64,000 bases of DNA from positions 1,920,001-1,984,000 of the forward strand of contig CAXXLQ010000004.1 of NCBI GenBank assembly GCA_963668695.2, read 5' to 3'. This stretch comes from Vicinamibacteria bacterium. GTDB taxonomy: Bacteria > Acidobacteriota > Vicinamibacteria > Marinacidobacterales > Marinacidobacteraceae. The translations under genes were made by a program, and so were the position numbers. The first letter of the stretch is position 1, and the number at the start of each line of letters is the position of its first letter. Under the pieces are notes generated by a model. The model was given only the letters and a program-made list of their open reading frames with translations, was not told the DNA's origin and did no database searches. Shown piece after piece: positions 9,082 through 62,340 of the stretch.

Positions 9082-9280
9082 ACAGCCTGTGGACAAGGTC
9101 ATGCGGCCCAGTTCTCCCGGTGGGGGCTCGAGCGGCGATCCATCCCGGCTGAAGCACTTCGCTTCGCTTCGTTCGTCGTTGCGCTTCGGTCGAAATACAC
9201 TCGGTATTCCTCCCTCGCGCGCCTTGTCACCCGGGCGCCTCGCCGCTCTCGGCGCTCACGTCACCTTGTCCACAGGCTGT
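9082..9280. mobile_element. MITE-like element, body A (one 18-nt module)
   Basis: Perfect 19-bp IR AACAGCCTGTGGACAAGGT/ACCTTGTCCACAGGCTGTT; core CGTTGCGCTTCGGTCGAAATACAC..GTATTCCTCCCTCGCGCGCCTTG. Confidence 0.8.
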
Positions 9281-9285
9281 TAACG

Positions 9286-10299
9286 ATGCACGCGTCACGC
9301 TGGCTAAATACGGTGGACACCCATACGGAGGGGGAGCCCACCCGGATCATTACCGGCGGGATCGGCCATCTGGCCGGCGAAACAATCTCCGAAAAGCGGG
9401 ATTCCTTCCGTCGCCAGCTGGATCATCTCCGCACCGCGCTGGTCGCGGAACCCCGGGGGCACAAGGACATGTTCGGCTGCGTGTTGACCGAACCGGCGGG
9501 GCCGGATGCCCAGTTCGGCATGTTCTTCATGGACAACGGCGGCTACCTGGACATGTGCGGGCACGCCACCATCGGAGTCTCGACGGTGCTGGTCGAGCTG
9601 GGAATGGCGCCCGGCGAGGGATCCCGCCGCCGCATCCGGCTCGAGACGCCGGCCGGCATGGTGGAATCGGTGGTGCAGGTGAAAGACGGACGCGCAGTGT
9701 CGGTCACCTTCCGCGGCGTGCCTTCCTTCGTAGAGCACCTGGATGCAACGCTTCCCGTACCCGGGATCGGCGAGTTGAAGGTTGACGTCGCATACGGGGG
9801 CAACTGGTTCGTCTACGTGGATGCCGATGCGCTGGGAATCGAAGTGTCGCTGCGCAACATCCGGGAGGTGGTGGACCTCGGGATGCGGGCGCGGGAGGCG
9901 GCGAACCGGCATCTGCCTGTCCGCCATCCCGAGATCCCGGGAAGCGACCACATCAATATCGCCACCGTGCTGGCGCGGGCCGAAGATCCCGCCGCAACGT
10001 ATCGGAACGTGCATGTGTTCGGCCCGGGTCAGTTCGACCGCTCCCCGGGCGGGACGGGAAACTGCGCGCGCCTTGCGGTGCTGCACCGGAAGGGAGCGTT
10101 GGGCCCGGACGCCACGGTGCGAATCGAGAGCGTGACCGGCGGAATGTTCCGCGCGCGGGTCGTCGAAGAAACCGAGGTTGGCGGCCGGAAAGCCATCGTT
10201 CCGGAGATCACCGGTTCCGCGCACATCACCGGGTTCCACCAGTTCCCGCTTGATCCCCATGACCGGCTGGGTCACGGGTTCTCAACCGAGTGGGCGTGA
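9286..10299 (+). CDS. Proline racemase/hydroxyproline epimerase family protein
   Basis: HTEGEPTR, EPRGH, MCGH, DVAYGGN, DRSPGGTG motifs. Confidence 0.92.
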   Translation: MHASRWLNTVDTHTEGEPTRIITGGIGHLAGETISEKRDSFRRQLDHLRTALVAEPRGHKDMFGCVLTEPAGPDAQFGMFFMDNGGYLDMCGHATIGVSTVLVELGMAPGEGSRRRIRLETPAGMVESVVQVKDGRAVSVTFRGVPSFVEHLDATLPVPGIGELKVDVAYGGNWFVYVDADALGIEVSLRNIREVVDLGMRAREAANRHLPVRHPEIPGSDHINIATVLARAEDPAATYRNVHVFGPGQFDRSPGGTGNCARLAVLHRKGALGPDATVRIESVTGGMFRARVVEETEVGGRKAIVPEITGSAHITGFHQFPLDPHDRLGHGFSTEWA

Positions 10300-10394
10300 C
10301 TGCGCGGTCTACTGGCGGCCCGCGTTCTCCCTCGACGTCTTTGTTGTGCCCGATGCCGTAGTTGTCCGGGAACTGATCGAGCCAAAGGACTGAT

Positions 10395-10550
10395 GGCAGC
10401 GAACTCTGTTCGCTGCCCGCGAGTTCGGGGGAAAGTGTGAAAGGGGGGATTCTCCCCTTTCACAAGACGGTAACGACGAATCGGAACTCGCCGCCGTGCG
10501 CCGGAGGCGCGCAAGGGAGTTTCGATTCGCGGCGCGAAGCGCCGGGCGGT
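10395..10550. repeat. Repeat family B (double hairpin)
   Basis: GGCAGCGAAC-tct-GTTCGCTGCC and GTGAAAGGGG..CCCCTTTCAC hairpins; recurs at 14375, 23038, 23431, 29332. Confidence 0.8.
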
Positions 10551-10626
10551 TTCTGGGCGGGGCCAGGGCGATCAGCGCCGATGATCCGGATCTGCTACAA
10601 CTCTTACGGCCCCGCCCAGGAACCGC

Positions 10627-12576
10627 TCACCGAATTAGGAACGCGAGTTCTCCCACCGCAGAGCGGTTCTGGCTGTCGTCGGTGACCCGGATGACTGCCG
10701 TGTAGCGCCCGGCTCGCAGGGCCGCGGTCTGCAGCGACAGCATGATGGGTGTGCCGTCCGGCCGCCGCGGGTCGAGATCCAAACGTCCCGGCCGCTCCGC
10801 TTCCACGGCGATCTCCCCCGCGGCGTTCCGGATCTCGTAGGCAACCCGTACCTGGGCAACCGGATCCTCGCGTCCCGGGAAGATGAAGAAGGCGACGCGT
10901 GCGTCCTCCGCCCGCGAGAAGGCGGCTACCGGCCTCACCGGCGGCCCGGCCGCTTCCGGTCCGTGTTCCTCGCTGACGAACGGGAAGACGCTGGACAGCG
11001 AAAAGGTTTCCCCGAATCCGGTGGGAATGACCAATGCCGATGACCCGGCGTGGATCTGCCTCCCGCCCCGCTCGACGACCAACTCGAGCTGGAGTGCTCC
11101 CGAGGGCAGCTCGGCCGGCGTCGAGATCCAGAAACGCCGGATGTCCACCGGGCCCGACGCCTCGGTCAGCACCGTCCCCCCGGGGCCCACCACCCGTAGC
11201 CGCAGTTCGGCCGGCTCTTCCAGCGACGATTCGGGAAGCGCCGCGGCGAGCACTCCGAAAGCGCCGTGAGGACGGGGATTCAGGAGGTAGGCGTAGGTGT
11301 TCACGTCCTCCGGGAACGCGTACCCATAGTCGCCGCGAGCGGCTGCTTCGATGACCTCGCCACGACGCCGTGCGAAATAGCCGGGCCGGGCGATGACCCG
11401 GAGGTCCGGCCGGTCGCGGACCCGCACCGCGATCTGCCGATACTCGCCGTCCAGTTCCGTCTTGGTGGGAGAGAAGGACAGGAGGTAGTAGAGCTGGTTC
11501 TGGATGCCGATGCGGTTCAGCGCAACCGCGAAGTTCGTCTGGTTCGGGAAGTACGTTCCTCCGGTGGCGATCGCCAGGGACGCGGCGCCGCCTTCGGCGG
11601 GGATGTTGGCCGCGATCTCCATCCGGGTGAGTGGGTGATCGTTGGGCTCGACGGGCAGCGGGTTCCCGAGGACGTCGAAGGCGTTCAGGCTGGGGTTCAG
11701 GATGTTGTTCTCGTTGCCGTACACGCCTGTCAGGTCAACCATGTAGAGGGTGGCGTTCGCGTGATTCAACTGGAGGATCGCCTCCCGGAGACTTCGCGTC
11801 ATGTCAAGCGCCTTCCGCCCGGGGAATTGGTCCACCTCGGTGCCGGCGATCTCGCCGACGAGCTGCCGGGGGTCGGCGAAGGTCTGGAGGTTCATGGAGA
11901 GGAAGACGACGATCTTGCGCCCCTCCACCGACTCGAGCGCGTCCGCGAGCGCAAAGAGCATCTCGTAGGAGTCGCGGGCGTCGATCTCCGGCCCGACGGG
12001 GCTCTGGTAGGTTCCGGGCACGATCCGGCGGATGTTCGCGAGCGTCTGCTCCTTGCCCGAGTAGAACTCCTGGAGCACCCGGACGGTGTGGGCGAACTCC
12101 AGGATCATGGTTTCGTCCCCGTCCACCATGTGCTCGATCACGAACTCCTCGAGCCCGCGCTTGCCGCGCCGGAGGTTCACCGGGTCGGCGCCGCGACGGT
12201 TGAACACGATCACGAACCGGCGGGGAGAAGTGTTGCCCGTGGCGGCGGCCTCCGGATCGGGTAGTGCCAGGGCTTCTTCCGGGACGGACTCTCCCAGTTC
12301 ATAGCGCTGCCAATCCACCACGTCGAGGCTCGCCACCCGCTGGGGCTCCTCATCCTCGAATAGTTCGAAGTCGTCGGCGGTGAGACCTGGGATCGGGTTT
12401 CCGTCGTCGTCGAGCACCAGCACGTCCACGATGACCCGGGTGGCGGCGGCGCGGAACCGGAACGTCTGGCCGGCGGCCAGAGCGGCGATTCCGACCGCCG
12501 AAAGCGCGAGGGCGGTCAGTGCCAAGGCGAGTGGGGTTCGTGAGAAGCGGCGCGGCGGACGGGGATCCTTGAGCAT
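10627..12576 (-). CDS. Acidobacteria-type VWA-domain protein
   Basis: Signal peptide, VIVDVLVLD..G.PI.GLTADDFELFED, GRKIVVFLS, SLAIATGG, YYLLSF, VIARPGY. Confidence 0.85.
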   Translation of the reverse strand: MLKDPRPPRRFSRTPLALALTALALSAVGIAALAAGQTFRFRAAATRVIVDVLVLDDDGNPIPGLTADDFELFEDEEPQRVASLDVVDWQRYELGESVPEEALALPDPEAAATGNTSPRRFVIVFNRRGADPVNLRRGKRGLEEFVIEHMVDGDETMILEFAHTVRVLQEFYSGKEQTLANIRRIVPGTYQSPVGPEIDARDSYEMLFALADALESVEGRKIVVFLSMNLQTFADPRQLVGEIAGTEVDQFPGRKALDMTRSLREAILQLNHANATLYMVDLTGVYGNENNILNPSLNAFDVLGNPLPVEPNDHPLTRMEIAANIPAEGGAASLAIATGGTYFPNQTNFAVALNRIGIQNQLYYLLSFSPTKTELDGEYRQIAVRVRDRPDLRVIARPGYFARRRGEVIEAAARGDYGYAFPEDVNTYAYLLNPRPHGAFGVLAAALPESSLEEPAELRLRVVGPGGTVLTEASGPVDIRRFWISTPAELPSGALQLELVVERGGRQIHAGSSALVIPTGFGETFSLSSVFPFVSEEHGPEAAGPPVRPVAAFSRAEDARVAFFIFPGREDPVAQVRVAYEIRNAAGEIAVEAERPGRLDLDPRRPDGTPIMLSLQTAALRAGRYTAVIRVTDDSQNRSAVGELAFLIR

Positions 12577-12595
12577 GAAGTCCCTTCCCGCGCCC

Positions 12596-13660
12596 TCATT
12601 CCGGGTTTGTTGCCGGCAGTACCGTGCAGTCGCTACACCCCGGAACGCGAACCTGCGGGACACCGGATTGTCTCTCGGCCGCAGCGTCTTCTCCAACAAG
12701 ACTTAGTCGGTACCAGCGTTCGTTCCGGGCCGCGATGCGATCGAGCGGCTTCCGGAACCCTTGGCGCGGGCGAAGTAAGCTGGACAGGATGTCGTCCGCA
12801 CTGCGGGGTGAGACCGCACGCTGACGACCCTCGCGGGTGGTTGAGGAAAAGATGGTTCCATGAACGCCGGCTTCGTCGACGCTCAGCTCGCCGCGGTTCG
12901 CGGTCAGGATCCTCTCCTCGAGTTCCTGCACGCCGGCAAGATGGAGAACGTGAACCGTCGCTTGCGCGGCGCCGAGCCGCTGGGTGATCGGCGCCAGCCC
13001 GGCATCCAGCTGGCCGCGTGGGTCGGAACGGATTCGCGGGAGGTCGGCCTTCCGGATCGTGCCCGGCTGCTCGGCAGTCCACGAAAAGCTGCTGAGGCTG
13101 CCCGAGAACGGGATCACCATTTTCCGCCCGGGAACCTCGACGAGCCGCTCGGCCAGAGCATGGAGCATGAAGGCCGCGTCGGCGGCATCCTGGGCGGCCC
13201 CGACCGGACTCCGGAAACCCATCGGGGTGATGTTGTGGACCTCCGGAAGAGCCTCGCCCGATCCCGTCCGCCACCCGCGGGTGATCCGTGGCACCTCGGC
13301 GAAGTCCACGAAGAGCGCCTCGTCAAGATCCCCGAAGCGAGAAGACACGAACTCCGCGAGACCACGCTGCGCCCGCTTGAGTTGCGCCGGGAGCGCGCCC
13401 CTCCGGTTGAAGACGAAGACGAAGCGGCGCGGCGCGGTTTCGGCCGCAACCATTCGTACCCCGGCGACCGGACGGATGCGGTCGCCGACGATGACCTCGA
13501 AATCGCCTCGGTTCAGTCCGGCGACCGGATTCCCCGCGTGGTCGAGCACCAGGGCGTCCACCATGACTCCGGTGTCTTCGCCCGGAGTGACGGCGGGGGC
13601 GGCCGAAGCGGTGAGCAACACCGCCGCCAGGGAACTGAGCGCCAGCAGTTTCTTCGGCAT
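12596..13660 (-). CDS. Second, shorter VWA-related paralogue (possibly lesioned)
   Basis: GGAGG RBS then MPKKLLALSS signal peptide; VMVDALVLD, RRFVFVFNRRGA, GRKMVI parallel the neighbour; ORF-track N-terminal extension is repeat-derived. Confidence 0.7.
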   Translation of the reverse strand: MPKKLLALSSLAAVLLTASAAPAVTPGEDTGVMVDALVLDHAGNPVAGLNRGDFEVIVGDRIRPVAGVRMVAAETAPRRFVFVFNRRGALPAQLKRAQRGLAEFVSSRFGDLDEALFVDFAEVPRITRGWRTGSGEALPEVHNITPMGFRSPVGAAQDAADAAFMLHALAERLVEVPGRKMVIPFSGSLSSFSWTAEQPGTIRKADLPRIRSDPRGQLDAGLAPITQRLGAAQATVHVLHLAGVQELEERILTANRGELSVDEAGVHGTIFSSTTREGRQRAVSPRSADDILSSLLRPRQGFRKPLDRIAARNERWYRLSLVGEDAAAERQSGVPQVRVPGCSDCTVLPATNPE

Positions 13661-13761
13661 GGGAGGAACCTCCATCCGGATCGTGATGCGAAGAGCACGT
13701 CCAGACCTGGAGTCCGGGCGTAATGCAATGTCACATCCTGCAATTTCGTTGCCAGCACCTG

Positions 13762-14269
13762 GCAGCCTGTGGATAAAGTGGTGTGAGCGCCGAGAGCGGC
13801 CAGTCCTCCCGGTGGGGGCGAGGCCCAGTTCTCCCGGTGGGGGTCCGGCTGACAAGGCGCGCGAGGGAGGAGCCCCCACCGGGAGAACTGGCCCGGGTGT
13901 ATTTCGACCGAAGCGCAACGATGAGTGACGCGAAGCGGCGCGGTGAACAGCCGGTGGTGGAACCCGGGTGAGCGCCGAGGCCGGCGAGGCCCAGTTCTCC
14001 CGGTGGGGCCAGTTCTCCCGGTGGGGGCCCGGCTGGCAAGGCGCGTGAGGGAGGAGCCCCCACCGGGAGAACTGGCCCGGGTGTATTTCGACCGAAACGC
14101 AACGATGAGCGGCGCGCAGCGACGCGGGCAGCCGGGATGGCTCGCCGGCCGAGCCCCCACCGGGAGAACTGGGCCGCGCGGGTTTCATCACAGGCTGTTT
14201 GGCCGGGATGGATCGCCGCTCGAGCCCCCACCGGGAGAACTGGGCCGCGTGACTTTGTCCACAGGCTGC
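13762..14269. mobile_element. Nested MITE: A element (13947-14198) inside another A element
   Basis: Two left ends then two right ends; outer TIR GGATAAAGT/ACTTTGTCC, inner TIR GGTGGAACCC/GGGTTTCATC. Confidence 0.8.
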
Positions 14270-14374
14270 TAGGGCGGAATTGCATGGTGCGGGTTTCCCT
14301 ACGCCGCGGTGCCGGTTCCCACCGGGATAGCCGGGCAGGTGAGAGGCGAATGGCCCAGGGAGAAGAAAACTGAC

Positions 14375-14628: not shown

Positions 14629-14704
14629 TCCGGAAGGGGGGCTTGTCTTCCGGAGGCATGGCAGCTCGACGTTATTCCGGCGGAGTGCCCCCCTGCCGGA
14701 CCGC

Positions 14705-17047: not shown

Positions 17048-17093
17048 ACGTTCCTCAAGCGGAATTTACCCGTGCAGTCACGCGCCGCACCTG

Positions 17094-18346: not shown

Positions 18347-22820
<4,474 letters not shown>

Positions 22821-23760: not shown

Positions 23761-23959
23761 GCGGCTCGCGGACAGAGTGGCGCGAGCGCAGAGAGCGGCG
23801 AGGCGCCCGGCTGACAAGGCGCGCGAGGGAGGAATACCGAGTGTATTTCGACCGAAGCGCAACGATGAGCGCCGCGAAGCGCCAGTTCTCCCGGTGGGGG
23901 GGCGGTTCAGCCGGGATGGATCGCTGGTTGAACGCCGCGCGACTCTGTCTGGGGGCCGC
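23761..23959. mobile_element. Degenerate A element next to the M23 gene stop
   Basis: Intact A core; ends CGGCTCGCGGACAGAGT / ACTCTGTCTGGGGGCCG. Confidence 0.7.
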
Positions 23960-28013: not shown

Positions 28014-28400
28014 ATGCCGACGTGGCTCTTGTTTTCGATGTTGCTGGCTATCAGTTCTGGCGGCCAAGAGGTTTGGGTCGTTCCGGACGAGGCCCGGAAC
28101 CTGGAGAGCCCGGTTCCCCTCACCGATGCTGCGCTGACGGCCGGCGAGAAGGCCTACGGTGCGCGGTGCGCCTCCTGCCACGGCGACTCGGGCAAGGGCG
28201 ACGGCAAGGCCACCCGGTTTATCCGCCCGGCGCCCGCCGACATCTCGACTGCGGAAGCGCGGGATCGGATGACGGACGGCGAGATGTTCTACAAGATCAC
28301 CGAGGGGAAGAAGCCGATGCCGGGTATGGCCCGGACGCTCAGCGACGAGGAACGCTGGCAGGTGGTGCACTACGTGAGGACGCTCCAGCCGGCGCGCTAG
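28014..28400 (+). CDS. Monoheme c-type cytochrome
   Basis: Signal peptide, CASCHG heme motif, distal MPG. Confidence 0.9.
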   Translation: MPTWLLFSMLLAISSGGQEVWVVPDEARNLESPVPLTDAALTAGEKAYGARCASCHGDSGKGDGKATRFIRPAPADISTAEARDRMTDGEMFYKITEGKKPMPGMARTLSDEERWQVVHYVRTLQPAR

Positions 28401-28598
28401 CAGCCTGTGGTGAAACCCAAGCGGCGTTCGACCGGCGATGCATCCCGGCTGAACCACTCCGCTGCGCTCCGTTCTGCGTTGCGTTTCGGTCGAAATACAC
28501 GCGGTATTCCTCCCTCACGCGCCTTGTCAGCCGGACCCCCACCGGGAGAACTGGGCCTCGCCGCTCTCGGCGCTCACCCGGGTTCCACCACCGGCTGC
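28400..28598. mobile_element. MITE-like element, body A
   Basis: Starts in the TAG stop of the cytochrome gene; TIR GGTGAAACCC/GGGTTCCACC. Confidence 0.8.
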
Positions 28599-32645: not shown

Positions 32646-32746
32646 ATCTCTCCGTGGATCGTCCGTCCCAACATTTCCCTCGGCGTCCGTCCCCCGAGGA
32701 CCTCCGAACCGACAACAAGGGAGAAGTGTACCGCCCGAGTCGCCTA

Positions 32747-33481
32747 GCAGCCTGTGGGCAAAGTGGCGTGAGCGCCGAGGCTGGCCAGTTCTCCCGGTGG
32801 GGGCGAGGCGCCCGGCTGACAACGCGTGAGGGAGGAATACCTGGTGTATTCCGACCGAAACGCAACGATGAGCGGCGCGCAGCGACGCGGGTAACAGCCG
32901 GTGGTGGAACCCACGTGAGCGCCGAGGCCGGCGAGGCGCCCGGCTGACAAGGCGCGTGAGGGAGGAATACCTGGTGTATTTCGACCGAAACGCAACGACG
33001 AGCGGCGCGCAGCGACGCGGTTCAGCCGGGATGGATCGCCGGCCGAACGCCGCGTGGGTTCCGCCACCGGTTGTTTGGCCGGGATGGATCGCCGGCCGAG
33101 CCCCCACCGGGAGAACTGGGCCGCGTGGGTTTCATCACCGGTTGTTTGGCCGGGATGGATCGCCGGCCGAGCCCCCACCGGGAGAACTGGGCCGCGCGGG
33201 TTTCATTACAGGCTGTTTGGCCGGGATGGATCGCCGGCCGAGCCCCACCGGGAGAACTGGGCCGCGCGGGTTTCATTACAGGCTGTTTGGCCGGGATGGA
33301 TCGCCGACCGAGCCCCCACCGGGAGAACTGGGCCGCGCGGGTTTCATTACAGGCTGTTTGGCCGGGATGGATCGCCGACCGAGCCCCCACCGGGAGAACT
33401 GGGCCGCGCGGGTTTCATTACAGGCTGTTCAGCCGGGATGGATCGCCGGCCGAACGCCGCGTGACTTTGTCCACAGGCTGC
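32747..33481. mobile_element. Nested A elements with tandem array of right ends
   Basis: CTAG on both flanks; two left halves then seven right-end units (about 71 nt with module, about 53 nt without). Confidence 0.85.
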
Positions 33482-35842: not shown

Positions 35843-35905
35843 TCGGCTCGGCGGTCGAGCCTCCACCGGGAGAACGGGGCCGCGCGACCTGTTCAGATGC
35901 TGCTA

Positions 35906-36620
35906 ACAGCCTGTGGTGGAACCCGGGTGAGCGCCGAGGTTGGCCAGTTCTCCCGGTGGGGGCGAGGCCCAGTTCTCCCGGTGGGGCCAGTCCTCCCGGT
36001 GGGGGCCCGGCTGACAAGGCGCGTGAGGGAGGAATACCGGGTGTATTCCGACCGAAACGCAACGATGAGCGGCGCGAAGCGACGCGGTTCAGCCGGGATG
36101 GATCGCCGGCCGAGCCCCCACCGGGAGAACTGGGCCGCGTGGGTTTCACTGCCGGCTGTTCAGCCGGGATGGATCGCCGGCCGAGCCCCCACCGGGAGAA
36201 CTGGGCCGCGCGGGTTTCACTACCGGCTGTTCGGCCGGGATGGATCGCCGGCCGCACGCCGCGTGGGTTTCACTGCCGGCTGTTCAGCCGGGATGGATCG
36301 CCAGCCGCACGCCGCGTGGGTTTCACTGCCGGCGGTTCAGCCGGGATGGATCGCCGGCCGAGCCCCCACCGGGAGAACTGGGCCGCGTGGGTTTCACTGC
36401 CGGCTGTTTGGCCGGGATGGATCGCCGGCCGAGCCCCCACCGGGAGAACTGGGCCGCGTGGGTTTCACTGCCGGCTGTTTGGCCGGGATGGATCGCCGGC
36501 CGAGCCCCCACCGGGAGAACTGGGCCGCGTGGGTTTCGCTACCGGTTGTTTGGCGGGATGGATCGCCGCCGAGCCGCCCCACCGGGAGAACTGGGCCGCC
36601 TGGGTTTCGCCACAGGCTGT
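35906..36620. mobile_element. A element with eight tandem right-end units
   Basis: TA flanks; six units of about 71 nt and two of 53 nt; ends on TAA stop of the PP2C gene. Confidence 0.85.
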
Positions 36621-37879: not shown

Positions 37880-37899
37880 GGGTGGCGGCGCTGACCTTA

Positions 37900-38080
37900 G
37901 CAGTCTGTGGTGAAACCCAGGCGGCGTTCGAGCGGCGATCCATCCCGCCTGAACCGCGCCGCTTTGCGGCGCTCGGCGTTGCGTTTCGGTCGAAATACAC
38001 CAGGTATTCCTCCCTTACGCGCCTTGTCAGGCGGGCGCCTCCCCGCTCTCGGCGCTCACCCGGGTTTCACCACCGACTGC
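37900..38080. mobile_element. Minimal A element (no 18-nt module)
   Basis: TIR CAGTCTGTGGTGAAACCC / GGGTTTCACCACCGACTG; used as reference for empty sites. Confidence 0.8.
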
Positions 38081-38099
38081 GAGCGCCAACCGGGTTTGG

Positions 38100-45558: not shown

Positions 45559-45579
45559 GCTCGCGCCGGGCGCCGTCTA

Positions 45580-45712
45580 GCAGCCTGTGGATGAAGTGGC
45601 GAGAGCGCCGAGAGCGCCAGTTCTCCCGGTGGGCGGGCGCTTCAGCCGGGATGGATCGCCGCTCGAGCCCCCACCGGGAGAACTGGGCCGCGTGACTTTG
45701 TCCACAGGCTGC
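45580..45712. mobile_element. Internally deleted A element
   Basis: CTAG on both flanks, both TIRs present, core missing; ends on a TAG stop. Confidence 0.8.
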
Positions 45713-50040: not shown

Positions 50041-50560
50041 GCAGCCGGTGGCGTGAATCTGCCAGCGTCAACTCGCGGCGCGGAGCGCCGCAGGGGTGGG
50101 GTGCGGGGAGGAGTTTCCCCTCCCCGCGAAAAAGGGTGACGCGAAGTGCCCAGCGCTTCGCGCCACCATCAGCCGGTGGGCAGAGTGGCGAGAGCGGCCA
50201 GTCCTCCCGGTGGGGGCGAGGCGCCCGGCTGACAAGGCGCGCGAGGGAGGAGCCCCCACCGGGAGAACTGGCCCGGGTGTATTTCGACCGAAGCGCAACG
50301 ATGAGCCGCGCGGAGCGGGGCAGTTCAGCCGGGATGCATCGCCGCTCGCTTCCGGAGCGGGGCGCGGGCACCGCGGAGACCCCGGAGCGGAAGGGACGGG
50401 GGACGGGGCCACTCGACCCCCATCCCTTCTGGCTCGGGAATGCCACGGGACTCTGTCTACAGGCTGCTTGCCGGTGGGGAAAGCGCCCGGCATCCCGGAC
50501 CGCCGGCTCTGTCGTGTCCTCCTTGCTTGCGTGATGCGGGGCGCTTTGTCCATGGGCGGT
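50041..50560. mobile_element. Body-C element with nested A(D) element (50169-50467)
   Basis: Removing the insert restores a sequence colinear with the 17094 and 30984 C copies. Confidence 0.75.
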
Positions 50561-50562: not shown

Positions 50563-50798
50563 ACAGCCTGTGGTGGAGCCCGGGTGAGCGCCGAGAGCGG
50601 CCAGTCCTCCCGGTGGGGGCGAGGCGCCCGGCTGACAAGGCGCGTGAGGGAGGAGCCCCCACCGGGAGAACTGGCCCGAGTGTATTTCGACCGAAACGCA
50701 ACGCAGAGCGCCGCAAAGCGCCAGTTCTCCCGGTGGGGGGGCGGTTCAGGCGGGATGGATCGCCGCTCGAACGCCGCGTGGGTTTCACCACAGGCTGT
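50563..50798. mobile_element. MITE-like element, body A (three modules)
   Basis: Abuts previous element; right end on a TAA stop. Confidence 0.8.
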
Positions 50799-50977
50799 TA
50801 ATCGGCGAACCAGGCGCGGCCGATGATGAGGAGCCAGTAGAGAATCAGCGAAACCACGAGAGCTCGTCCGAACTCCCGAAGTTTGTCCAGGAACCGTGCC
50901 TTGCGGGGTCCCGGCACGAGGGCGTAGATCGCGGTCGCGATGGTGGCGACGATGGCGAGGTTGCGAAACCGGATCAT
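50798..50977 (-). CDS. Small two-TM hypothetical protein
   Basis: MIRFRNLAIVATIATAIYALVPG..LVVSLILYWLLIIG; GC3-rich codons. Confidence 0.6.
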   Translation of the reverse strand: MIRFRNLAIVATIATAIYALVPGPRKARFLDKLREFGRALVVSLILYWLLIIGRAWFAD

Positions 50978-51195: not shown

Positions 51196-51574
51196 ACAGC
51201 CGGTGGTGGAACCCGGGTGAGCGCCGAGGCCGGCCAGTTCTCCCGGTGGGGGCGAGGCGCCCGGCTGACAAGGCGCGTGAGGGAGGAGCCCCCACCGGGA
51301 GAACTGGCCCGAGTGCATTTCGACCGAAACGCAACGATGAGCGGCGCGTAGCGACGCGGTTCAGCCGGGATGGATCGCCGGCCGAGCCCCCACCGGGAGA
51401 ACTGGGCCGCGCGGGTTCCATTGCAGGCTGTTCAGCCGGGATGGATCGCCGGCCGTTTCCGGAGCGGGGCGCAAGCACCGCGTAGACCCCGGAGCGGAAG
51501 GGACGGGGGCGGGACCACCCGACCCCCTTCCCTTCTTGGCTCGGGAACGCCGCCTGGGTTTCACCACCGGCTGT
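51196..51574. mobile_element. A element with duplicated right end carrying module D
   Basis: TA flanks; TIR CAGCCGGTGGTGGAACCC / GGGTTTCACCACCGGCTG. Confidence 0.8.
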
Positions 51575-52624: not shown

Positions 52625-53180
52625 CACCCCGTGGAAAAAGCACCCCGCACGATTCCCCAAGGCAGTACGCGCTCCGATTCCGGCGATTTGTGCGCGTGCG
52701 GGGCGCTTTCCCCACGGGCAAGCAGCCTGTAGACAAAGTCACGTGGCATTCCCGAGCCAGAAGGGATGGGGGTCGAGTGGCCCCGTCCCCCGTCCCTTCC
52801 GCTCCGGGGTCTCCGCGGTGCTGGCGCCCCGCTCCGGAAGCGAGCGGCGATGCATCCCGGCTGGCCCCCACCGGGAGAACTGGCCGCCCCGCTTCGCGTG
52901 GCTCATCGTTGCGCTTCGGTCGAAATACACTCGGGCCAGTTCTCCCGGTGGGGGCTCCTCCCTCGCGCGCCTTGTCAGCCGGGCCCCCACCGGGAGGACT
53001 GGCCCCACCGGGAGAACTGGGCCTCAACGCTCTCGGTGCTCACGCGACTTTGTCCACAGGCTGCTCATCGAGCGAATCGCTCCGCGATCCGCACCATCGT
53101 CTTTCGCGGGGAGGGAAAACCCCTCCCCCGAGGCGCTGCGCGCCCCGAATGGAGCGCGCCAGAGTTTGGCCACCGCCTGC
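52624..53180. mobile_element. Body-C element with nested A(D) element (52722-53064)
   Basis: Starts in TAG stop; same composite as 50041-50560 in the opposite orientation. Confidence 0.78.
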
Positions 53181-53489: not shown

Positions 53490-53502
53490 TCCGGGGTTCG
53501 AC

Positions 53503-54579: not shown

Positions 54580-54675
54580 CCGGTATCCGGAAGGCGCCGG
54601 CCCGGGAGTGGCGAGAGCCGTCCGCAAGCGAATACACTCCGCGAATTCTGTCCCCTCGTGGCTCCAGCGGGTGGG

Positions 54676-56229: not shown

Positions 56230-57248
56230 CCCCGGAAACCGCGCTGGCCGACCCGGCTGCCGACATCGAAAGCCGGGTCCAGACGTTTCGCGATCGCCAT
56301 GACCGCATTCAGGCCGAGGTCGGCCGCGTCATCGTCGGCAATCGGGAAGTAATCAGCGGGATCATCACCTGTCTGCTCACTCGCGGACACGTGCTGCTCG
56401 AGGGTATCCCGGGGCTCGGGAAGACCAAGATCGTGCAGACCCTCTCCGAGGCGATGCACCTCAAGTTCAACCGCGTGCAGTTCACGCCGGACCTCATGCC
56501 CGGCGACATCACGGGCACGAACGTGATCCGGGAGACGGAAACCGGCGCCAAGGTCCTCGACTTCCAGCGGGGGCCGATCTTCTGCCACCTGATGCTGGCG
56601 GACGAGGTCAACCGGGCTACCCCGAAGTCCCAGTCGGCGCTTCTCGAGGCCATGCAGGAAAAGAGCGTCTCCGTCGGCAACACGACCTTCAAGCTCGAAG
56701 AGCCGTTCTTCGTGATGGCCACTCAGAACCCCATCGAGCTCGAAGGCACCTATCCGCTTCCCGAGGCCCAGATGGACCGCTTCCTGATGAAGCTCCGGAT
56801 CGGGTATCCCGACCACGATGAACTTCGCGAGATCGTGGCACGGACGACCTCGGTCGAGGAGCCGAAGGCCCGGCCGATCGTGACCCGGGAAGAGGTTCTG
56901 GAGATGCGGGACACCGTGTTGTCGGTTCCCATCGCCCGGCCGATCCAGGACTACGCCATCCGGCTGACCATGGGGACCCACCCCGGGTCGAAGTTCGCCC
57001 ACGCGCTCACGAACCGCTACGTGAAGTTCGGGGCCAGCCCGCGGGGAACCCAGGCGCTCGTGCTGTCCGGGAAATTCCGGGCGCTCCTCGCCGGCCGGGT
57101 ACACGTTTCGGCGGAGGACGTCCGGGACAGCGTCCTGCCCACGCTACGGCACCGGCTGCTCCTCAACTTCGAGGGAGAGGCCGACAAGGTGGACACCGAC
57201 GACATCCTGCGGGAAGTCATCGCCTCGATCGCGCTCCCCGGCGCCTGA
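56226..57248 (+). CDS. moxR: MoxR-family AAA+ ATPase
   Basis: GIPGLGKT, VQFTPDLMPGD, DEVNRATPKSQSALLEAMQE, ATQNPIE. Confidence 0.96.
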   Translation: MTPETALADPAADIESRVQTFRDRHDRIQAEVGRVIVGNREVISGIITCLLTRGHVLLEGIPGLGKTKIVQTLSEAMHLKFNRVQFTPDLMPGDITGTNVIRETETGAKVLDFQRGPIFCHLMLADEVNRATPKSQSALLEAMQEKSVSVGNTTFKLEEPFFVMATQNPIELEGTYPLPEAQMDRFLMKLRIGYPDHDELREIVARTTSVEEPKARPIVTREEVLEMRDTVLSVPIARPIQDYAIRLTMGTHPGSKFAHALTNRYVKFGASPRGTQALVLSGKFRALLAGRVHVSAEDVRDSVLPTLRHRLLLNFEGEADKVDTDDILREVIASIALPGA

Positions 57249-57352
57249 CGCCCCCCCTGCCGAACGGGTGATGCCGCTCCGCACGCGCGACCCCGCGAGG
57301 GCGTGCCCCCGCTTCGGGCCGAGCCGGGGGCCGGGACGCAACGGTTGACGGC

Positions 57353-58240
57353 ATGAGCCAATCGGACACGCTCTTCGACGCCGATTTCATGGAGCGGCTC
57401 GAGTACCTGAAGCTCATGGCCACCCGGATGCTGCCGAGCCGGCATCGCGGCGCACATCGGGCCAGGAAGCGCGGTTCGGGCATTGAGTTCGCCGACTACC
57501 GGCCCTACGTGGACGGCGATGACACGCGCGACGTTGACTGGAAGGCCTTCCTCCGTCTCGACAAGCTGGTAATCCGCATCCTCGAGGAGGAGGCGGACCT
57601 GCCCGTTTACCTGTTCGTGGACCGGAGCGCCTCCATGGCGTTCGGCGACCCCCCGAAGTTCGACTTCGCCCGCAGGATGGCCGGCGCCCTGTCCTACATC
57701 GGCCTCATGAACCACGATCTGATCTCGATCGTCTGGTACGGACCGAAGATCGAGGGGTGGATGGCCCCGAAGCGGGGGCGGAACCAGATCTTCCGCGCGT
57801 TCCGGTTTCTCGACGCGGGCGACACCGGTGGCGCCACTTCGCTTTCGGCGTGTTTCCGGGCCTTTTTCGGCTCCCGCCGCAAGCGCGGCCTCGCCGTGAT
57901 CCTCTCGGACCTCATGGACGAGGAGGATCTGCTGGGGGCGTTTGACGCGTGCCGCTACCAGAAGCACGACATGTTCGTCGTGCAGTTGCTCACTCCGGAA
58001 GAGCTCGAACCGTCGCTTCCCGATGAGGCTCTGCTCACCGACAGCGAAGATGGTTCCGAGCGCCGTGTCCGGGTCACGCCGAGGCTGCTGGACCGCTACC
58101 AGCAGGCGCTCGCCGAACATCAGCAGAAGATCGAGGAGTACTGCTCCCGCTACGGGTTCGGGTTCTGCGTTGCGGACACTGGCAAGCCCTTCGAAGACGC
58201 CGTCATGTCGATCTTCAAGACGGACCGATTCATCCGGTAA
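57353..58240 (+). CDS. DUF58 protein
   Basis: GSGIEFADYRPYVDGDD..DW, DRSASM, ILSD. Confidence 0.93.
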   Translation: MSQSDTLFDADFMERLEYLKLMATRMLPSRHRGAHRARKRGSGIEFADYRPYVDGDDTRDVDWKAFLRLDKLVIRILEEEADLPVYLFVDRSASMAFGDPPKFDFARRMAGALSYIGLMNHDLISIVWYGPKIEGWMAPKRGRNQIFRAFRFLDAGDTGGATSLSACFRAFFGSRRKRGLAVILSDLMDEEDLLGAFDACRYQKHDMFVVQLLTPEELEPSLPDEALLTDSEDGSERRVRVTPRLLDRYQQALAEHQQKIEEYCSRYGFGFCVADTGKPFEDAVMSIFKTDRFIR

Positions 58241-58260
58241 ATCTGGTACCTCTGGACTCC

Positions 58261-60198
58261 ATGGGCTTTGCCGCCGCCCCGCTGCTGATCGCTCTCGGCG
58301 TTCTGCTGACCGCCGGGATCATCGTCGTCCTCTATTGGGTCCGGCCGGAGCCTCAGCCGGTGGTGGTCCCGTCGAATCTCATTTGGCGGCGCGTCCTTGA
58401 TGAACGCCGGCGCCGCGAGGATTTCTGGCGCTGGCTCATTTCGTTGGTGATTGCCTTGCTGGCGGGGCTTGCGGTGATCATGGCCATGGCCCAGCCGATC
58501 CCCGAGAGCGGCGTGCGGGGCGGCCGGGTGGTGGTGGTCATGGACACCTCACCGAGCATGGCGGCCGCGCTCTCCGGAGGAGGCACTCGCTGGGATCAGG
58601 CGTCCGAGCAGGTGCGGCGCATCCTCACCGGCAGCAGCGAAACGAGCGAGTTCCTGCTGCTGGACACTGCCGGAGACCGCGGCGGACGCTCTTTCACCGG
58701 ACGGCGCGAGGCCCTCGAGGCCCTCGAAGATCTGGGCCCGGTGCACGGCCGGGAACACCGCTTCCCCGATGTCGCTGATCTGCTCGAGTCCGCTTCGGGC
58801 ACGGCCCCCGCCGCTGACGTCATCTTCGTCGGGGACGGGGTGTACGTGCCCGAGGCGCCCGACGGCGTCGAGCGCATCTCCGTGTTCGAGGCGGCGCCGA
58901 ACGCCGGGATTACCGCTTTCGACGTCCGCCCGCTACCGTCCGATCCGGGTCGCTTCGAGGCGTTCATCGAGGTCGTCCGCCATCCCGCCGCGGAGGACGA
59001 CGGCGGTGTCGTGGCGCTTCAAGTTGATGGTGCGGGAGGCGCCTCGCTACGCCGGACCCTCCGGGTCGATGCCGGGACGCCGCTCGGCGAGACGGTGCCG
59101 CTGACCGGGTTCGTCGCGGGACCGGTCCGCGCCGTGATCGCGATTTCGGGAGACGACGCCTTGCCCGCCGACGACGTGGCGCACGCCTACATTCCGGCGC
59201 GCAACCGGCTGCGGGTTCTGCTCGTCGGGGGGCCGAATCCGTTCTGGGAGGCGGCTCTGCGTCTCGATCCCCGGGTGAGCCTTTCCGTGGCGCCCCCGGG
59301 TTCGGAAGCGCTCGCCGATCTCGATTTCGCCTCGGTGGATCTCGTGGTGATTGAAGGGGCGCCTCCGGAGGCGATGCCTCCGGTCCCCGTGCTCGTCGCC
59401 GCCTCGGGGAACGCCGAATGGCTCCCGCCCCGATTGGGAAACGAAACGGGAAACGAAACGGGAAACGAAACGGGAAACGAAACGGGAAACGAAACGGGAA
59501 ACGAAACGGGAAACGAATCGGGAAATGAGGAGGCGAACCTCGAAGGAGAGACCGCGACCGTAATGCTCCCGGTCGTGCGCGGGCAGACGGAACACCCGCT
59601 GCTCCGGGATCTCAACTTCGAGGATGCGCTCGCGAGAGATGTGGAGGCGTTCGATGCGGCCTTCTTCGGCGGTCAGAGTTCCTGGGAACTCCTGCTCGGC
59701 GATTCGCGGCTCGGCCTGCTGGCGGCCCGGGAAAGTCCCCTGCGCGGGCTCGCCTTCGCTTTCCCGATTGCCCGGTCCAACCTGCCGCTCCAGGCTGACT
59801 TCCCGCTGCTGCTCTCCCGCGCCCTGAGCTGGTTGACCGACGTGGAAGTGCGCCGGGTCGGGCTCGGACAGGCCCGGGTCGCGATGGCGGCGGGAGCCAT
59901 TTTCGATTCCGAAGGCCGGGAAGTGGCGTCGCGCCGTCTGGGCTCCGAGATTTCCTTCGACGCCAGCGAACCGTCGCTCTACTACGCCGCCGGCGGCGGA
60001 CGGGAAGTCGTGGTTGCGGCGAGTCTTCTCGACCGGAGGGCTTCGAATCTGAACCAGTCGGCCTGGGCCGAGGAGCCGCCGGCCACCCTGGCGCCGGCGG
60101 CGACCGCGGCGAGTGCGATCTGGCCGATACTTGCGCTCTTCGCTCTCCTGCTGATCGCCGCCGAATGGATCGCCTTCCACCGACACGCCACCGTCTGA
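58261..60198 (+). CDS. BatA plus VWA domain membrane protein
   Basis: VVVPSNLIW BatA-like region, MIDAS DTSPSM, VGDG, C-terminal TM with EW. Confidence 0.88.
   Translation: MGFAAAPLLIALGVLLTAGIIVVLYWVRPEPQPVVVPSNLIWRRVLDERRRREDFWRWLISLVIALLAGLAVIMAMAQPIPESGVRGGRVVVVMDTSPSMAAALSGGGTRWDQASEQVRRILTGSSETSEFLLLDTAGDRGGRSFTGRREALEALEDLGPVHGREHRFPDVADLLESASGTAPAADVIFVGDGVYVPEAPDGVERISVFEAAPNAGITAFDVRPLPSDPGRFEAFIEVVRHPAAEDDGGVVALQVDGAGGASLRRTLRVDAGTPLGETVPLTGFVAGPVRAVIAISGDDALPADDVAHAYIPARNRLRVLLVGGPNPFWEAALRLDPRVSLSVAPPGSEALADLDFASVDLVVIEGAPPEAMPPVPVLVAASGNAEWLPPRLGNETGNETGNETGNETGNETGNETGNESGNEEANLEGETATVMLPVVRGQTEHPLLRDLNFEDALARDVEAFDAAFFGGQSSWELLLGDSRLGLLAARESPLRGLAFAFPIARSNLPLQADFPLLLSRALSWLTDVEVRRVGLGQARVAMAAGAIFDSEGREVASRRLGSEISFDASEPSLYYAAGGGREVVVAASLLDRRASNLNQSAWAEEPPATLAPAATAASAIWPILALFALLLIAAEWIAFHRHATV
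59437..59532 (+). repeat. In-frame 12-nt tandem repeat (GGAAACGAAACG)x6 plus two degenerate units
   Basis: Encodes (GNET)6-GNES-GNEE. Confidence 0.95.
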
Positions 60199-60275
60199 GC
60201 GTTTGGGGCGGGGGCTCACAACACCTGCGAACGGTCTGGCGGTGAAGGGCAGCGAACCGGGCGCCCCCGCCCCTA

Positions 60276-60528
60276 GCAGCCTGTGGTGGAACCCGGGTGA
60301 GCGCCGAGAGCGGGGAGGCCCAGTTCTCCCGGTGGGGCCAGTCCTCCCGGTGGGGGCCCGGCTGACAAGGCGCGTGAGGGAGGAATACCCAGTGTATTTC
60401 GACCGAAACGCAACGCAGAGCGCCGCAAAGCGCCAGTTCTCCCGGTGGGGGGGCGGTTCAGGCGGGATGCATCGCCGCTCGAGCCCCCACCGGGAGAACT
60501 GGGCCGCCTGGGTTTCACCACAGGCTGC
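60276..60528. mobile_element. MITE-like element, body A (four modules)
   Basis: TA flanks; near-identical to 62088-62340. Confidence 0.85.
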
Positions 60529-60593
60529 TAACGCTGGCGCTGGGCGCCGCGGCCGGGCTCCGGCCTTGCCGGACCCGTCCACCGGGGCCTTCT

Positions 60594-60620
60594 TCGAAAG
60601 GGGGGACACCCCCCTTTCGA
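60594..60620. repeat. Perfect 12-bp hairpin resembling the family-B stem
   Basis: TCGAAAGGGGGG-ACA-CCCCCCTTTCGA. Confidence 0.6.
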
Positions 60621-60699
60621 GTATTCCCCCCCGCCGCTTCGCGGCGTCCGCCCTGGTTGGCGGCCCGCGGACCTGGTTCGAGAGCCGGGATCTATCCGC

Positions 60700-62088
60700 A
60701 TGACCCGGGCGTCCGGTTCGGTCCGTACCCGGATCGCTCCGTCGCCGACCGGCGACCCGCACGTCGGGACGGCCTACCAGGCGCTTCTCAACTACGCGTA
60801 CGCGAAGCGGCACGGGGGCGCCTTCTTGCTGCGGATCGAGGATACCGATCAGGCGCGCTCGACCAGGGCCTCGGAGGAAGCCATCCTGCGGTCGCTTCGC
60901 TGGCTCGGGCTCGAATGGGACGAGGGGCCCGACGTCGGGGGACCCTTCGCCCCGTACCGGCAGAGCGAAAGGGTGGAGGCCTGCCGCGAGATTGCCGAAC
61001 GGCTGCTGGGTGACGGGAAGGCGTATCGGGACTACGGGGAGGACGCCGGCGGCGCCTACGCAATCCGGCTCCGTACTCCGGCGGGCGGCCGTATCGCGCT
61101 TCCCGACCGGCTCCGGCAGGGCCTCTCCAAGGACTGGGAATCGGTGGACGATCCGGTGTTGCTCAAATCGGACGGTTTCCCGACGTATCACCTCGCCAAC
61201 GTGGTGGACGACCACCTGATGGAGATCTCGGATGTGATCCGCGGGGAGGAATGGATCGCCTCGCTCCCGAAACACCTGCTGCTCTACGAGACGCTGGGGT
61301 GGGAGCCGCCGTCCTTCTGGCACGTCCCCCTCCTCAGGAACAACGACAAGAACCGCACCAAACTGAGCAAGCGCAAGAGCCCGACCTCGATCGACTTCTA
61401 CCGCCAGGCCGGTTTCCTGCCCGAGGCGCTTCTCAACTTCCTCGGGATGCTCGCCTGGACGCGGGGGGAGGGCGAGGAGAAGTTCGCCCTGGGCGCTTTC
61501 GTCGACCACTTCGAACTCGGGTCGCTTTCGTTGGCCGGCGCCGTCTTCGACACCGAGAAGCTGGCCTGGCTGAACGGCCGCTACCTCCGGGAGGACTACG
61601 GACCCTCGGAGCTGGCCGGCCTCTTGCGGAACTGGCGGCTCGATGACGAAACGCTGGCGGGAATCGCGAAGCTGGCCCAGCCCCGGATGCGCACCCTCGG
61701 AGACTTCGGGCCGCTGGCCTCCCAGTTCTTCACGGATGAAACGCCCCGTGATCCCGACGTTCTCGCCGGAGGCGACGATGTCTCCGAAGTCGCCGAGTGG
61801 CTGTTGCTTTCGGAATGGGCGCTCGAGGACCTCCCGGAGTTCACCGCGGACGGCGTCCACCAGGCGCTTCGCAGCGCGGCGGAATCGCTCGGGGTCAAGC
61901 TCAGGAAGTTCACCCGACCTCTCTACGTGGCGATCAGCGGTTCTCAGTCGTCCACTCCCCTCTTCGGCTCGATGGTCCTGCTCGGGAGCGCGATGACGCG
62001 CATGCGTCTCCGCCGCGCCCGGGCGGCCCTCGGCGGCGTTCCCCGCCGCCGCGAAAAGGAACTGGGAATCCTCCGCAAGGGGGGCTAG
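60700..62088 (+). CDS. gltX: Glutamate--tRNA ligase
   Basis: RIAPSPTGDPHVG, LRIEDTD, PTYHLANVVDDH, IRGEEW, KLSKR. Confidence 0.95.
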   Translation: MTRASGSVRTRIAPSPTGDPHVGTAYQALLNYAYAKRHGGAFLLRIEDTDQARSTRASEEAILRSLRWLGLEWDEGPDVGGPFAPYRQSERVEACREIAERLLGDGKAYRDYGEDAGGAYAIRLRTPAGGRIALPDRLRQGLSKDWESVDDPVLLKSDGFPTYHLANVVDDHLMEISDVIRGEEWIASLPKHLLLYETLGWEPPSFWHVPLLRNNDKNRTKLSKRKSPTSIDFYRQAGFLPEALLNFLGMLAWTRGEGEEKFALGAFVDHFELGSLSLAGAVFDTEKLAWLNGRYLREDYGPSELAGLLRNWRLDDETLAGIAKLAQPRMRTLGDFGPLASQFFTDETPRDPDVLAGGDDVSEVAEWLLLSEWALEDLPEFTADGVHQALRSAAESLGVKLRKFTRPLYVAISGSQSSTPLFGSMVLLGSAMTRMRLRRARAALGGVPRRREKELGILRKGG

Positions 62089-62340
62089 CAGCCTGTGGTG
62101 GAACCCGGGTGAGCGCCGAGAGCGGGGAGGCCCAGTTCTCCCGGTGGGGCCAGTCCTCCCGGTGGGGGCCCGGCTGACAAGGCGCGTGAGGGAGGAATAC
62201 CTGGTGTATTTCGACCGAAACGCAACGCAGAGCGCCGCAAAGCGCCAGTTCTCCCGGTGGGGGGGCGGTTCAGGCGGGATGGATCGCCGCTCGAGCCCCC
62301 ACCGGGAGAACTGGGCCGCGTGGGTTTCACCACAGGCTGC
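62088..62340. mobile_element. MITE-like element, body A (four modules)
   Basis: CTAG on both flanks; starts in gltX TAG. Confidence 0.85.

Follow-up and report, generated by a model that had tools for sequence, protein, structure and literature searches.

A stretch of 64,000 nucleotides (nt) from a Vicinamibacteria bacterium (Acidobacteriota; GenBank assembly GCA_963668695.2, contig CAXXLQ010000004.1, positions 1,920,001 to 1,984,000; hereafter the window) was analysed for an 18-nt DNA unit, CCCCACCGGGAGRACTGG, which carries A or G at position 13 and is present or absent at definite places inside larger repeats. We found that the unit, a very small element, secondarily invades other repeats, having entered three repeat families and once a gene. 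We tentatively propose that it spreads by templated copying, exact to the ends of a short cassette, from filled sites of identical or similar sequence, which would require no enzyme of its own.

The window holds 49 exact units (expected 0; none in 100 shuffles), agreeing in number and position with the roughly 50 copies counted by hand in a preliminary description of this DNA, which had also proposed a count in the whole genome and in relatives. The source assembly (G000; 4.1 Mb, 92% complete, contamination figure 9%) is the most unit-rich genome, with 1444 exact units (1288 of the A variant and 156 of the G variant, together 0.63% of the assembly) and an extra 234 copies with 1-3 other mismatches; about 97-99 of the 1444 sit in doubly assembled stretches (the haplotigs C1 and C3 and the repeated ends of contig C4, see below). 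All 49 units of the window lie within copies of one miniature inverted-repeat transposable element (MITE) of about 190 nt, MITE-A, as the preliminary description had nearly put it, and none lies in any open reading frame (ORF) supported by GC content at third codon positions (GC3). Genome-wide, a single unit (plus its haplotig copy) sits well inside a gene, and among 80 loci of other metagenome-assembled genomes (MAGs) two units were found in long ORFs, both at repeat edges. Length spectra between conserved flanks are two-peaked with almost no intermediates, i.e., the unit behaves as an all-or-none block. Head-to-tail doublets, which had been noticed at 35969-36004, 52985-53020 and 60320-60355, proved real at all three places, and the assembly contains 134 doublets, two triplets, one array of four and one of five.

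Sites were numbered on the module-free MITE-A copy at 37895-38085. When this copy was compared with the source assembly by BLAST, 829 pieces were obtained, 336 of them near full length, with a median identity of 86%; 1259 of the 1444 units fall within these pieces, and the remainder mostly in tandem arrays of the MITE right end and in two further families, B and D. The 336 full-length copies revealed five main unit sites (reference coordinates 32-, 66+, 112-, 143+ and 150+) and four rare ones, so that the earlier claim of at least six internal positions stands in respect of the many sites, whereas its claim of both orientations has to be amended, the orientation being fixed at each site. S1 is empty in 243 cases and filled in 242, S2 in 180 and 218, S4 in 169 and 91 (+26), and S6, a hairpin site, in 122 and 34 (+16); S3 is empty in 334 (+34), single in 78 and double in 125. 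The net gain is 18 nt at S1, S2, S3 and S5 and 19 or 18 nt at S4 and S6, in keeping with the 17-19 nt, usually 18, given before.

The distinction between filled and empty sites is thus sharp, but the event is not the clean micro-insertion it was taken for: 1-3 nt, often containing A or T, are always overwritten by GC+unit(+C) or, less often, by CC+unit(+T). GGAGGA-ATA-CC becomes GGAGGA-GC+unit+C-CC at S1, CCGA-AC-GCC becomes CCGA-GC+unit-GCC at S2, CCTC-xC-CG becomes CCTC-GC+unit+C-CG at S4, CCGC-GC-CGC becomes CCGC-CC+unit-CGC at S5, and GCCGGTC-TGAA-GACCGGC becomes ...GAAG-GC+unit-CCGGC at the hairpin site; filled S3 reads either GGC+unit(G)+unit(A) or GAC+unit. The dinucleotide preceding the 1298 unit arrays is GC in 1109, AC in 91 and CC in 68. 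The real cassette is therefore about 20 nt, namely GC+CCCCACCGGGAGAACTGG, sometimes plus C, with a minor class CC+unit(+T). Variants are bound to sites: the G variant accounts for 7 of 679 units at S1, S2 and S5 together, for 41 of 190 at S4 and, as G-A doublets, for 80 of 212 arrays at S3; S3 singles are AC+unit in 71 cases versus GC in 6, and S5 shows CC+unit in 57 of 57. These quirks of S3 and S5 recur in independent gains at orthologous copies. The centre of a palindrome is hit at S3 (GGC/GCC), at one family-B site (CCGG/CCGG) and in the gene (CCCGC/GCGGG), and hairpin arms are hit at S1, S5 and S6, these being plain tallies of sites; in the predicted hairpin of the MITE, the five MITE-A sites have no structural surroundings in common. 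A blunt entry of a 19-mer into GG/CC was considered and rejected, because it fits only the two family-B sites and not S1, S2, S3 or the gene.

MITE-A itself ends in CAGCCTGTGG...CCACAGGCTG, is flanked by TTAA-, CTAG- or TTAG-like tetranucleotides, which we take to be reminiscent of IS5-type YTAR targets, and is predicted to fold into a long hairpin (z -5.5). A quick self-BLAST of the source assembly gave no multi-copy insertion sequence (IS) with ends matching MITE-A, and the few IS-like long repeats of C4 include none with unit-like ends. The right end of MITE-A is amplified into tandem arrays at 33050-33480 and 36060-36620 of the window, with a period of 71 nt when filled and 53 nt when empty; the number of array members differs between the two co-assembled strains. 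A clustered regularly interspaced short palindromic repeat (CRISPR) array was rejected as an explanation, since the 71-nt arrays repeat the MITE end itself and their spacers are accordingly alike. Family B, the second host, resembles a pair of repetitive extragenic palindromic (REP) hairpins, a variable GC hairpin being followed by GATGCCGGTC-TGAA/TGGA-GACCGGCGYTCCC; it occurs at about 14640-14700 of the window and at many places of the assembly (e.g., C4:2164150), in both orientations and often by gene ends. Family D, the third host, is MITE-like, about 190 nt long, with a G-rich hairpin (GGGGAGGGGTTTCCCCTCCCC) and a terminator-like end (GGGGTGCTTTTTC); one example lies at C4:1639229-1639479 and at least 49 other places match. 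Two family-D loci gave no Rfam match (E up to 0.1), and the window gave none at gathering score; family D may consist of small RNA genes or serve to carry terminators.

Gains, losses and load in related genomes

The clearest case of a gain lies outside any repeat. A full-length gene of the AcrB/AcrD/AcrF family (PF00873, E 6e-241) carries the unit in frame (peptide PHRENW) in the source assembly, in its haplotig and in G001, whereas the same gene in the other 14 genomes of the genus is exactly 18 nt shorter at this place. The empty form reads GAGCCCG-CG-CGGGAT, the centre of a 10-nt palindrome, and the filled form GAGCCCG-GC+unit-CGGGAT; judged from this alignment, it is apparently a de novo gain in unique DNA. 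Copies inside ORFs had been expected from the frame-keeping length of 18 nt, and this one was found, the sole one well inside a gene among 1444 units. Family D points the same way: only two of its copies in the source assembly bear the unit, and these, together with two copies in G001, read GCGCGG-GC+unit-CGCGG, whereas six of seven other aligned copies read GCGCGG-AT-CGCGG or a close variant; one copy in G008 has a reversed unit 8 nt away with the junction CC+unit+T. A second candidate for an in-gene insertion, at C4:2611741, was rejected because the unit-poor genome G010 has the same length there and 12 of the 18 letters. The first codons of this small membrane-protein gene are an exact G-variant unit in G000 and G008, and G001 and G004 show a 12-nt internal duplication; the unit may have overwritten a sequence that resembled it by chance, or it may have originated here. 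An intergenic unit at C4:1898241 lies in a variable repeat region and allowed no clean comparison.

Within MITE-A, gains could be polarised at 28397-28598. The copies of G000 and G004 agree at 183 of 184 positions after removal of the units, the sole difference being GGAC+unit versus GGGC, and in G001 the S3 site is empty and three other sites are filled. Since G004 is the more distant genome (91-92% DNA identity to G000, versus 94-96% for G001), these differences are gains. The flanks of this copy are only 90-91% identical between G000 and G004, and four other orthologous copies are 88-91% identical, so a recent exchange of this spot between lineages could have occurred; in G001 a second MITE-A copy is nested in the first. 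Loss, or conversion to the empty state, is seen at 37895-38085, where S4 is empty and the orthologues in G004 and G008 are filled. The preliminary description had reported that copies carry different combinations of filled sites, and the 336 copies indeed display 39 near-random combinations; all site pairs show four gametes, and even S3 and S4, which are 7 nt apart, are nearly independent (157/75/64/40). The fill state goes together with the 1-3 nt directly beside the unit (Cramer V 0.95-0.99 at S1 and S2, 0.80 at S5, about 0.5 and at lowest 0.44 at S3 and S4), and its association with polymorphic columns at least 4-5 nt away is slight (V at most about 0.3-0.5).

Turnover appears to be rapid. 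In three orthologous copies, 14 sites were compared between G000 and G001, and 8 of them are in different states. Haplotig C1 shows 318 mismatches to C4 in 109,302 aligned nt (99.7% identical), and the eight aligned blocks hold 48 versus 49 units. Three events separate the two in a tally that includes the gaps between aligned blocks: a swap at S3 of the doublet GGC-G-A and the single GAC-A in an otherwise identical copy, a 211-nt deletion between an S1 unit and an S2 unit, and one change of array number. A simple deletion from doublet to single is incompatible with the sequences and does not explain the swap. The window itself contains a further deletion between units, fixed at 45577-45712. 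From these few events, a site would appear to switch its state roughly ten times as often as a base is substituted.

A survey of related genomes, all separate assemblies, detected the unit in 21 of 41, the reversed pattern used as control giving 0 matches in the 41. It occurs in all 15 other genomes of the genus, with 8 to about 675 copies, and as the exact 18-mer in five of the seven genera of the family, and in none of 16 genomes of two sister families. Within the genus the number of units is only loosely tied to that of MITE core 13-mers: 1444 units stand against 515 cores in G000, 675 against 363 in G004, 588 against 327 in G008 and 630 against 256 in G001, whereas G010 has 11 units and 93 cores, G007 8 and 43, and G012 8 and 27. 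The units per core thus range from 0.12 to 2.8, rough ratios because the core 13-mer may have drifted in some genomes, although looser counts go in the same direction. One MITE copy of G010 is intact with five sites all empty. The unit load is a trait of the lineage, and the MITE as such does not include the unit. Some of the sites used in other genera differ: G018 has S8-, S5- and S4-like sites and, in addition, CGCGCC-TT changed to GC+unit-GTCAGCC, and in G019 CCGGG-AT is changed to GC+unit-GCATCGCC. The copies of G018 seemed to be all on the plus strand over 2 Mb, an appearance that came from 100 of 225 matches and from which nothing is drawn.

Among the matches listed, the named records with the unit are MAGs labelled Acidobacteriota, Vicinamibacteria or Candidatus Marinacidobacterium, and the public runs that hold the region are labelled as sponge metagenome or as host organisms. 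A 6-kb contig (L055) of a MAG labelled Gammaproteobacteria carries one unit, set in family B, and would be a mis-binned contig from an acidobacterium rather than a sign of the unit in another phylum; a Blastochloridaceae MAG (L027) is listed beside it. Single matches in Georgenia and Pseudarthrobacter have unrelated contexts and look like chance.

Mode of spread

The binding of the G variant and of the odd junctions to particular sites is our reason for proposing copying from filled sites. A single free template would spread variants evenly and with one junction type, and site-bound variants therefore speak for filled sites as the source. Short-patch gene conversion or template switching between the approximately 500-800 copies of the same MITE, mostly at the same site, may account for most transfers, and rare copying to merely similar sequence may found new sites; once there, units would act as 18-nt direct repeats and give rise to deletions, doublets and arrays. 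Read by eye, the sites seem to sort by the likeness of their flanks, S2 going with S3, S1 with those of family B, S4 with S8, and family D with the gene. The GC and CC junction classes look like lineages, which suggests stepping-stone transfer to similar sequences. Of the modes envisaged in the preliminary description, template switching with shuffling by recombination fits best, given the site-bound variants and junctions and the deletions mediated by units, and its view of a discrete unit is borne out in that the cassette is gained and lost on its own.

Several observations weigh against such copying. A target-specific enzyme would give the same grouping by flanks. The moved block has the same ends in every event, whereas the ends of random conversion tracts would differ; the steep fall in association over 3-5 nt would suit a defined cassette no less, and when G001 gained a unit at S1, a rare flank peculiar to that copy persisted only 4 nt away. 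The exact ends could be reconciled with copying if heteroduplex repair treated the 18-nt loop and the mismatches beside it as a single patch. That five of seven genera share an identical 18-mer calls for a recognising partner or recent horizontal spread, and would not be predicted from passive copying alone. At founding events the flanks were alike over no more than a few nt, and a donor was found for no single event. Concerted evolution of the MITE bodies left no general sign in five clean orthologous comparisons, the bodies being 88-91% identical versus 90-95% for the flanks in four of the five.

The same features would be expected if a dedicated sequence-specific machinery (a nuclease, recombinase or ribonucleoprotein, RNP) cut or pasted the cassette of about 20 nt at short GC-rich palindromes, the unit then being a non-autonomous micro-transposon, a possibility that we consider doubtful without dismissing it. 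It would explain the exact cassette ends (net +18, or +19 at two sites), the often palindromic targets (S3, family B and the gene), and an 18-mer identical in five of seven genera with a load per MITE that differs by lineage; a parallel exists in the small dispersed repeat (SDR) 5 of cyanobacteria, which a passage in PMC4390886 places at a fixed point in the highly iterated palindrome HIP1. Against it stand the site-bound variants and junction types, and the enzymes looked for in the source assembly: this gave no match to RVT_1 (at 92% completeness) and matched TnpB only below the cut-off, and Y1_Tnp, the domain of HUH and REP-associated tyrosine transposases (RAYT), had no match in G000 and G004 and weak matches in many low-load genomes. 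Writing templated by a reverse transcriptase (RT; of the retron, diversity-generating retroelement, group II or telomerase-like kind) or mediated by an HUH nuclease, as once suggested, is thus not borne out. Neither 5' truncation series in the unit length spectra nor a 6S RNA match in the source assembly, 6S RNA being considered as a possible template for a likeness to the E. coli product RNA, was found. Replication-strand bias, a mark of IS200/IS605-type and other single-strand HUH elements, was absent too, all arrays dividing by replichore into 350/333 and 276/282, and units in the hairpin family showed none in a small sample (8/15 versus 10/14). The unit and the 20-23-nt cassette have no terminal inverted repeats (TIRs) beyond 3-4 flank-dependent nt and no target-site duplication, 1-3 nt being replaced at the MITE sites, in the gene and in family D; at every junction compared, the earlier statement on both points held. 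The unit is not palindromic, and the folds of unit and cassette (-1.1 to -2.3 kcal/mol) are no better than those of shuffled sequences, so that the fold CCGG-GAGAA-CTGG once read into the unit carries no meaning (-1.1 kcal/mol, equalled by 135 of 200 shuffles). To our knowledge, an element of 18-20 nt that is not palindromic is very short for a recombinase site, which also counts against such a machinery. A writer/eraser that is neither RT, Y1-HUH nor TnpB, be it protein or RNP, and swaps the 20-nt cassette for 1-3 nt at GC-rich palindromes, is in our judgement unlikely.

Selection on a functional motif, such as one bound by the MITE transposase or by a DNA- or RNA-binding protein, with its copies shuffled by recombination, appears improbable. 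Exactness of 244 of 256 18-nt fills at S1 and of 259 of 271 at S2 and the persistence of the 18-mer across genera might be read in this way, and the first 12 nt match the inner portion of a variant MITE terminal repeat at 9 of 12 positions, which may be chance. However, 73 of 191 MITE columns vary by less than 1%, so the conserved third of its host is as invariant as the unit; an old unit at about 35855-35872 has decayed and is inherited unaltered in two species; about 93 MITE cores persist in G010 beside its 11 units; nothing in the window matches Rfam; and selection leaves the entry of an identical 18-mer into new places unexplained. The idea of an uptake tag, raised earlier, is at odds with a single unit well inside a gene. 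Templated copying from filled sites has also to be set against two further explanations. That an ancestral MITE had every site filled, and that nothing but losses produced the mosaic seen today, is very improbable: the conversion to empty at S4 of 37895-38085 and the deletions mediated by units do show that sites are lost, but the polarised gains at 28397-28598, the gene that is empty in 14 of 16 genomes of the genus, the unit in just two of at least 49 family-D copies, the partly different sites of other genera and the few units beside the MITE cores of G010, G007 and G012 contradict it, and a precise loss would not create the substitutions that set empty sites apart from filled ones. The chance that the unit is an artefact of assembly, adapters or binning is negligible. 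No support for this was found, though the source assembly holds redundant haplotigs, and it is contradicted by the unit-bearing relatives, assembled separately and with an empty reversed control, and by unit copies in named MAG records and in contigs of public runs from several studies. In these contigs, MITE bins are about 100-800 times deeper than unique DNA, loose ends carry the letters of the unit, and contigs stop at every MITE.

Elements of the window and assembly structure

The unit-bearing elements of the window are listed in Table 1. At the orthologue of window position 33480, immediately beside the MITE, G001 carries an inserted segment of about 1.2 kb that is bounded by the inverted ends TGTGGTGTCCCGCAAATA and encodes a transposase-like ORF; G000 lacks this segment.

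Table 1. MITE-A elements of the window with their units (start positions unless a range is given; G, G variant) and their state in related genomes.
Element	Position	Strand	Units and sites	Related genomes
MITE-A copy	9085..9283	.	one unit, S2 (9108-9125, minus)	no MITE in G001, G008; G004 has MITE, S2 empty
Two MITE-A bodies and two right-end array units	13756..14275	.	13800 (G, S4), 13825 (S3 single), 13874 (S1), 13991+14009 (S3 doublet), 14058 (S1), 14155 and 14226 (S2)	
MITE-A copy	19812..20032	.	19852 (G, S4), 19988 (S2)	G004: other states at S4, S3, S1
Degenerate MITE-A	23770..23950	.	23882 (S5, junction CCC+unit)	G008: S5 empty (CGC)
MITE-A copy	28397..28598	.	28537-28554 (S3 single, junction GAC+unit)	
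Two MITE-A bodies and right-end tandem array	32745..33480	.	32785 (S4); 33102, 33173, 33243, 33314, 33385 (S2)	
Old degenerate unit, 2 mismatches, in MITE remnant	35855..35872 (approximate)	+		same letters in G001
MITE-A body and right-end array	35905..36620	.	35944 (S4), 35969+35987 (S3 doublet); 36116, 36187, 36364, 36435, 36506, 36577 (S2); two array members empty	G001: other states at S3, S1, S2
Module-free MITE-A copy (reference)	37895..38085	+		
Internally deleted MITE-A	45577..45712	.	deletion joint formed by a unit lacking one base, between the S4 flank (left) and the S5 flank (right); intact unit 45669 (S2)	
MITE-A copy	50170..50330	.	50198 (G, S4), 50254 (S1)	
MITE-A copy	50565..50800	.	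50601 (G, S4), 50657 (S1), 50721 (S5)	
MITE-A copy	51198..51450	.	51234 (S4), 51290 (S1), 51388 (S2)	
MITE-A copy	52840..53075	.	52866 (rarer site S8), 52936 (S1), 52985+53003 (S3 doublet G-A)	
MITE-A copy	60275..60530	.	60320+60338 (S3 doublet), 60433 (S5), 60485 (S2)	
MITE-A copy	62087..62340	.	62132+62150 (S3 doublet), 62245 (S5), 62297 (S2)	

The source assembly contains redundant sequence. Contig C1 (144 kb) is a haplotig of C4:304-421 kb (about 99.3-99.7% identity), C3 (31 kb) is a haplotig of C4:3505-3538 kb (97.6-99.7%), and the ends of C4 repeat each other over about 135 kb (C4:9354-148038 versus C4:3775642-3913787). Two strains or an unresolved overlap are therefore indicated, which fits the contamination figure. 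Long tandem arrays with other units of about 35-45 nt (e.g., GAACATGTCGC...TAGCGG...) lie at C4:574312-576071, 2329554-2330693 and 2554259-2555871, and one such array translates to repeats of the type SRGPRRGYS.

Comparison with known systems

The unit ranks among the smallest mobile-like pieces of DNA seen. In the common view, mobile DNA must have ends by which an enzyme can grasp it, and a block of 18-20 nt lacking end repeats that enters new places, a gene among them, tests the lower limit of this view. If templated short-patch copying without an enzyme is true, it would represent a new selfish mode, riding on the homology between copies of another repeat; if an enzyme is needed, it would place an oligonucleotide of fixed sequence into DNA and so be interesting as a tool. 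A writer/eraser, if true, would make the unit the smallest transposon-like entity known, a parasite of parasites (the MITEs), and could also explain the cyanobacterial SDRs. The genus offers the contrasts for such work: loads from 0.12 to 2.8 per core, many orthologous pairs of filled and empty sites, and two strains co-assembled.

Several known repeat systems share some of these properties. Like REPs and the REPINs built from them (mobilised by RAYTs, Y1 HUH enzymes), the unit is short, abundant, intergenic and noncoding, and its host family B looks REP-like; it differs in having no hairpin, no GTAG or CGTC tag, no Y1_Tnp in G000 or G004 and no strand bias. From MITEs it differs in that the unit itself has neither TIR nor target duplication. 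The bacterial interspersed mosaic elements (BIMEs) of enterobacteria and the modular BOX elements consist of modules present or absent in varied combinations. They are module-mosaic repeats, as is MITE-A with its units, but their modules lie between palindromic units, whereas here one module occupies many positions in both orientations, and also other families and a gene. Rickettsia palindromic elements are about 100-150 nt long, palindromic and inserted in frame in genes; the in-frame unit in a conserved gene that stays open is similar, yet it is 18 nt long and occurs once among 1444 units. DNA uptake sequences (DUS), uptake signal sequences (USS) and HIP1 have a similar copy number (about 1,400 in 4 Mb) and a sequence conserved across a family, but they arise by point changes and are common in genes, whereas the unit is an all-or-none 18-nt block almost never found in them.

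A literature search judged by titles and the openings of abstracts returned nothing relevant on Marinacidobacterium or on such repeats in sponge Vicinamibacteria. The closest precedent appears to be the SDRs of cyanobacteria (Nostocaceae), which are equally unexplained. SDR4-6 of Nostocaceae were reportedly described by Elhai et al. in 2008, in Genome Res 18:1484. Passages of later papers that refer to the 2008 work present SDRs as highly iterated, dispersed, noncoding sequences of about 20 nt that may be mobile (PMC3116915, PMC5861425, PMC2884548, PMC4390886), can be tandemly repeated (PMC2884548) and, in the case of SDR5, insert at a fixed point inside the HIP1 palindrome (PMC5861425, PMC4390886); in these passages no mechanism is given. 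The claim that the system was undescribed thus has to yield to a precedent, so far as these passages describe it, and retains its force with regard to the mechanism, which is unexplained there too. The unit likewise is about 20 nt long, highly iterated and absent at orthologous places in relatives, and both it and the SDRs, as these passages portray them, are dispersed, thought to be mobile without coding capacity and able to form tandems. The likeness is one of description, and the unit differs in several ways: it belongs to another phylum, is 18-20 nt long, non-palindromic and overwrites 1-3 nt, and its main hosts are the copies of a MITE, in which it toggles at fixed sites.

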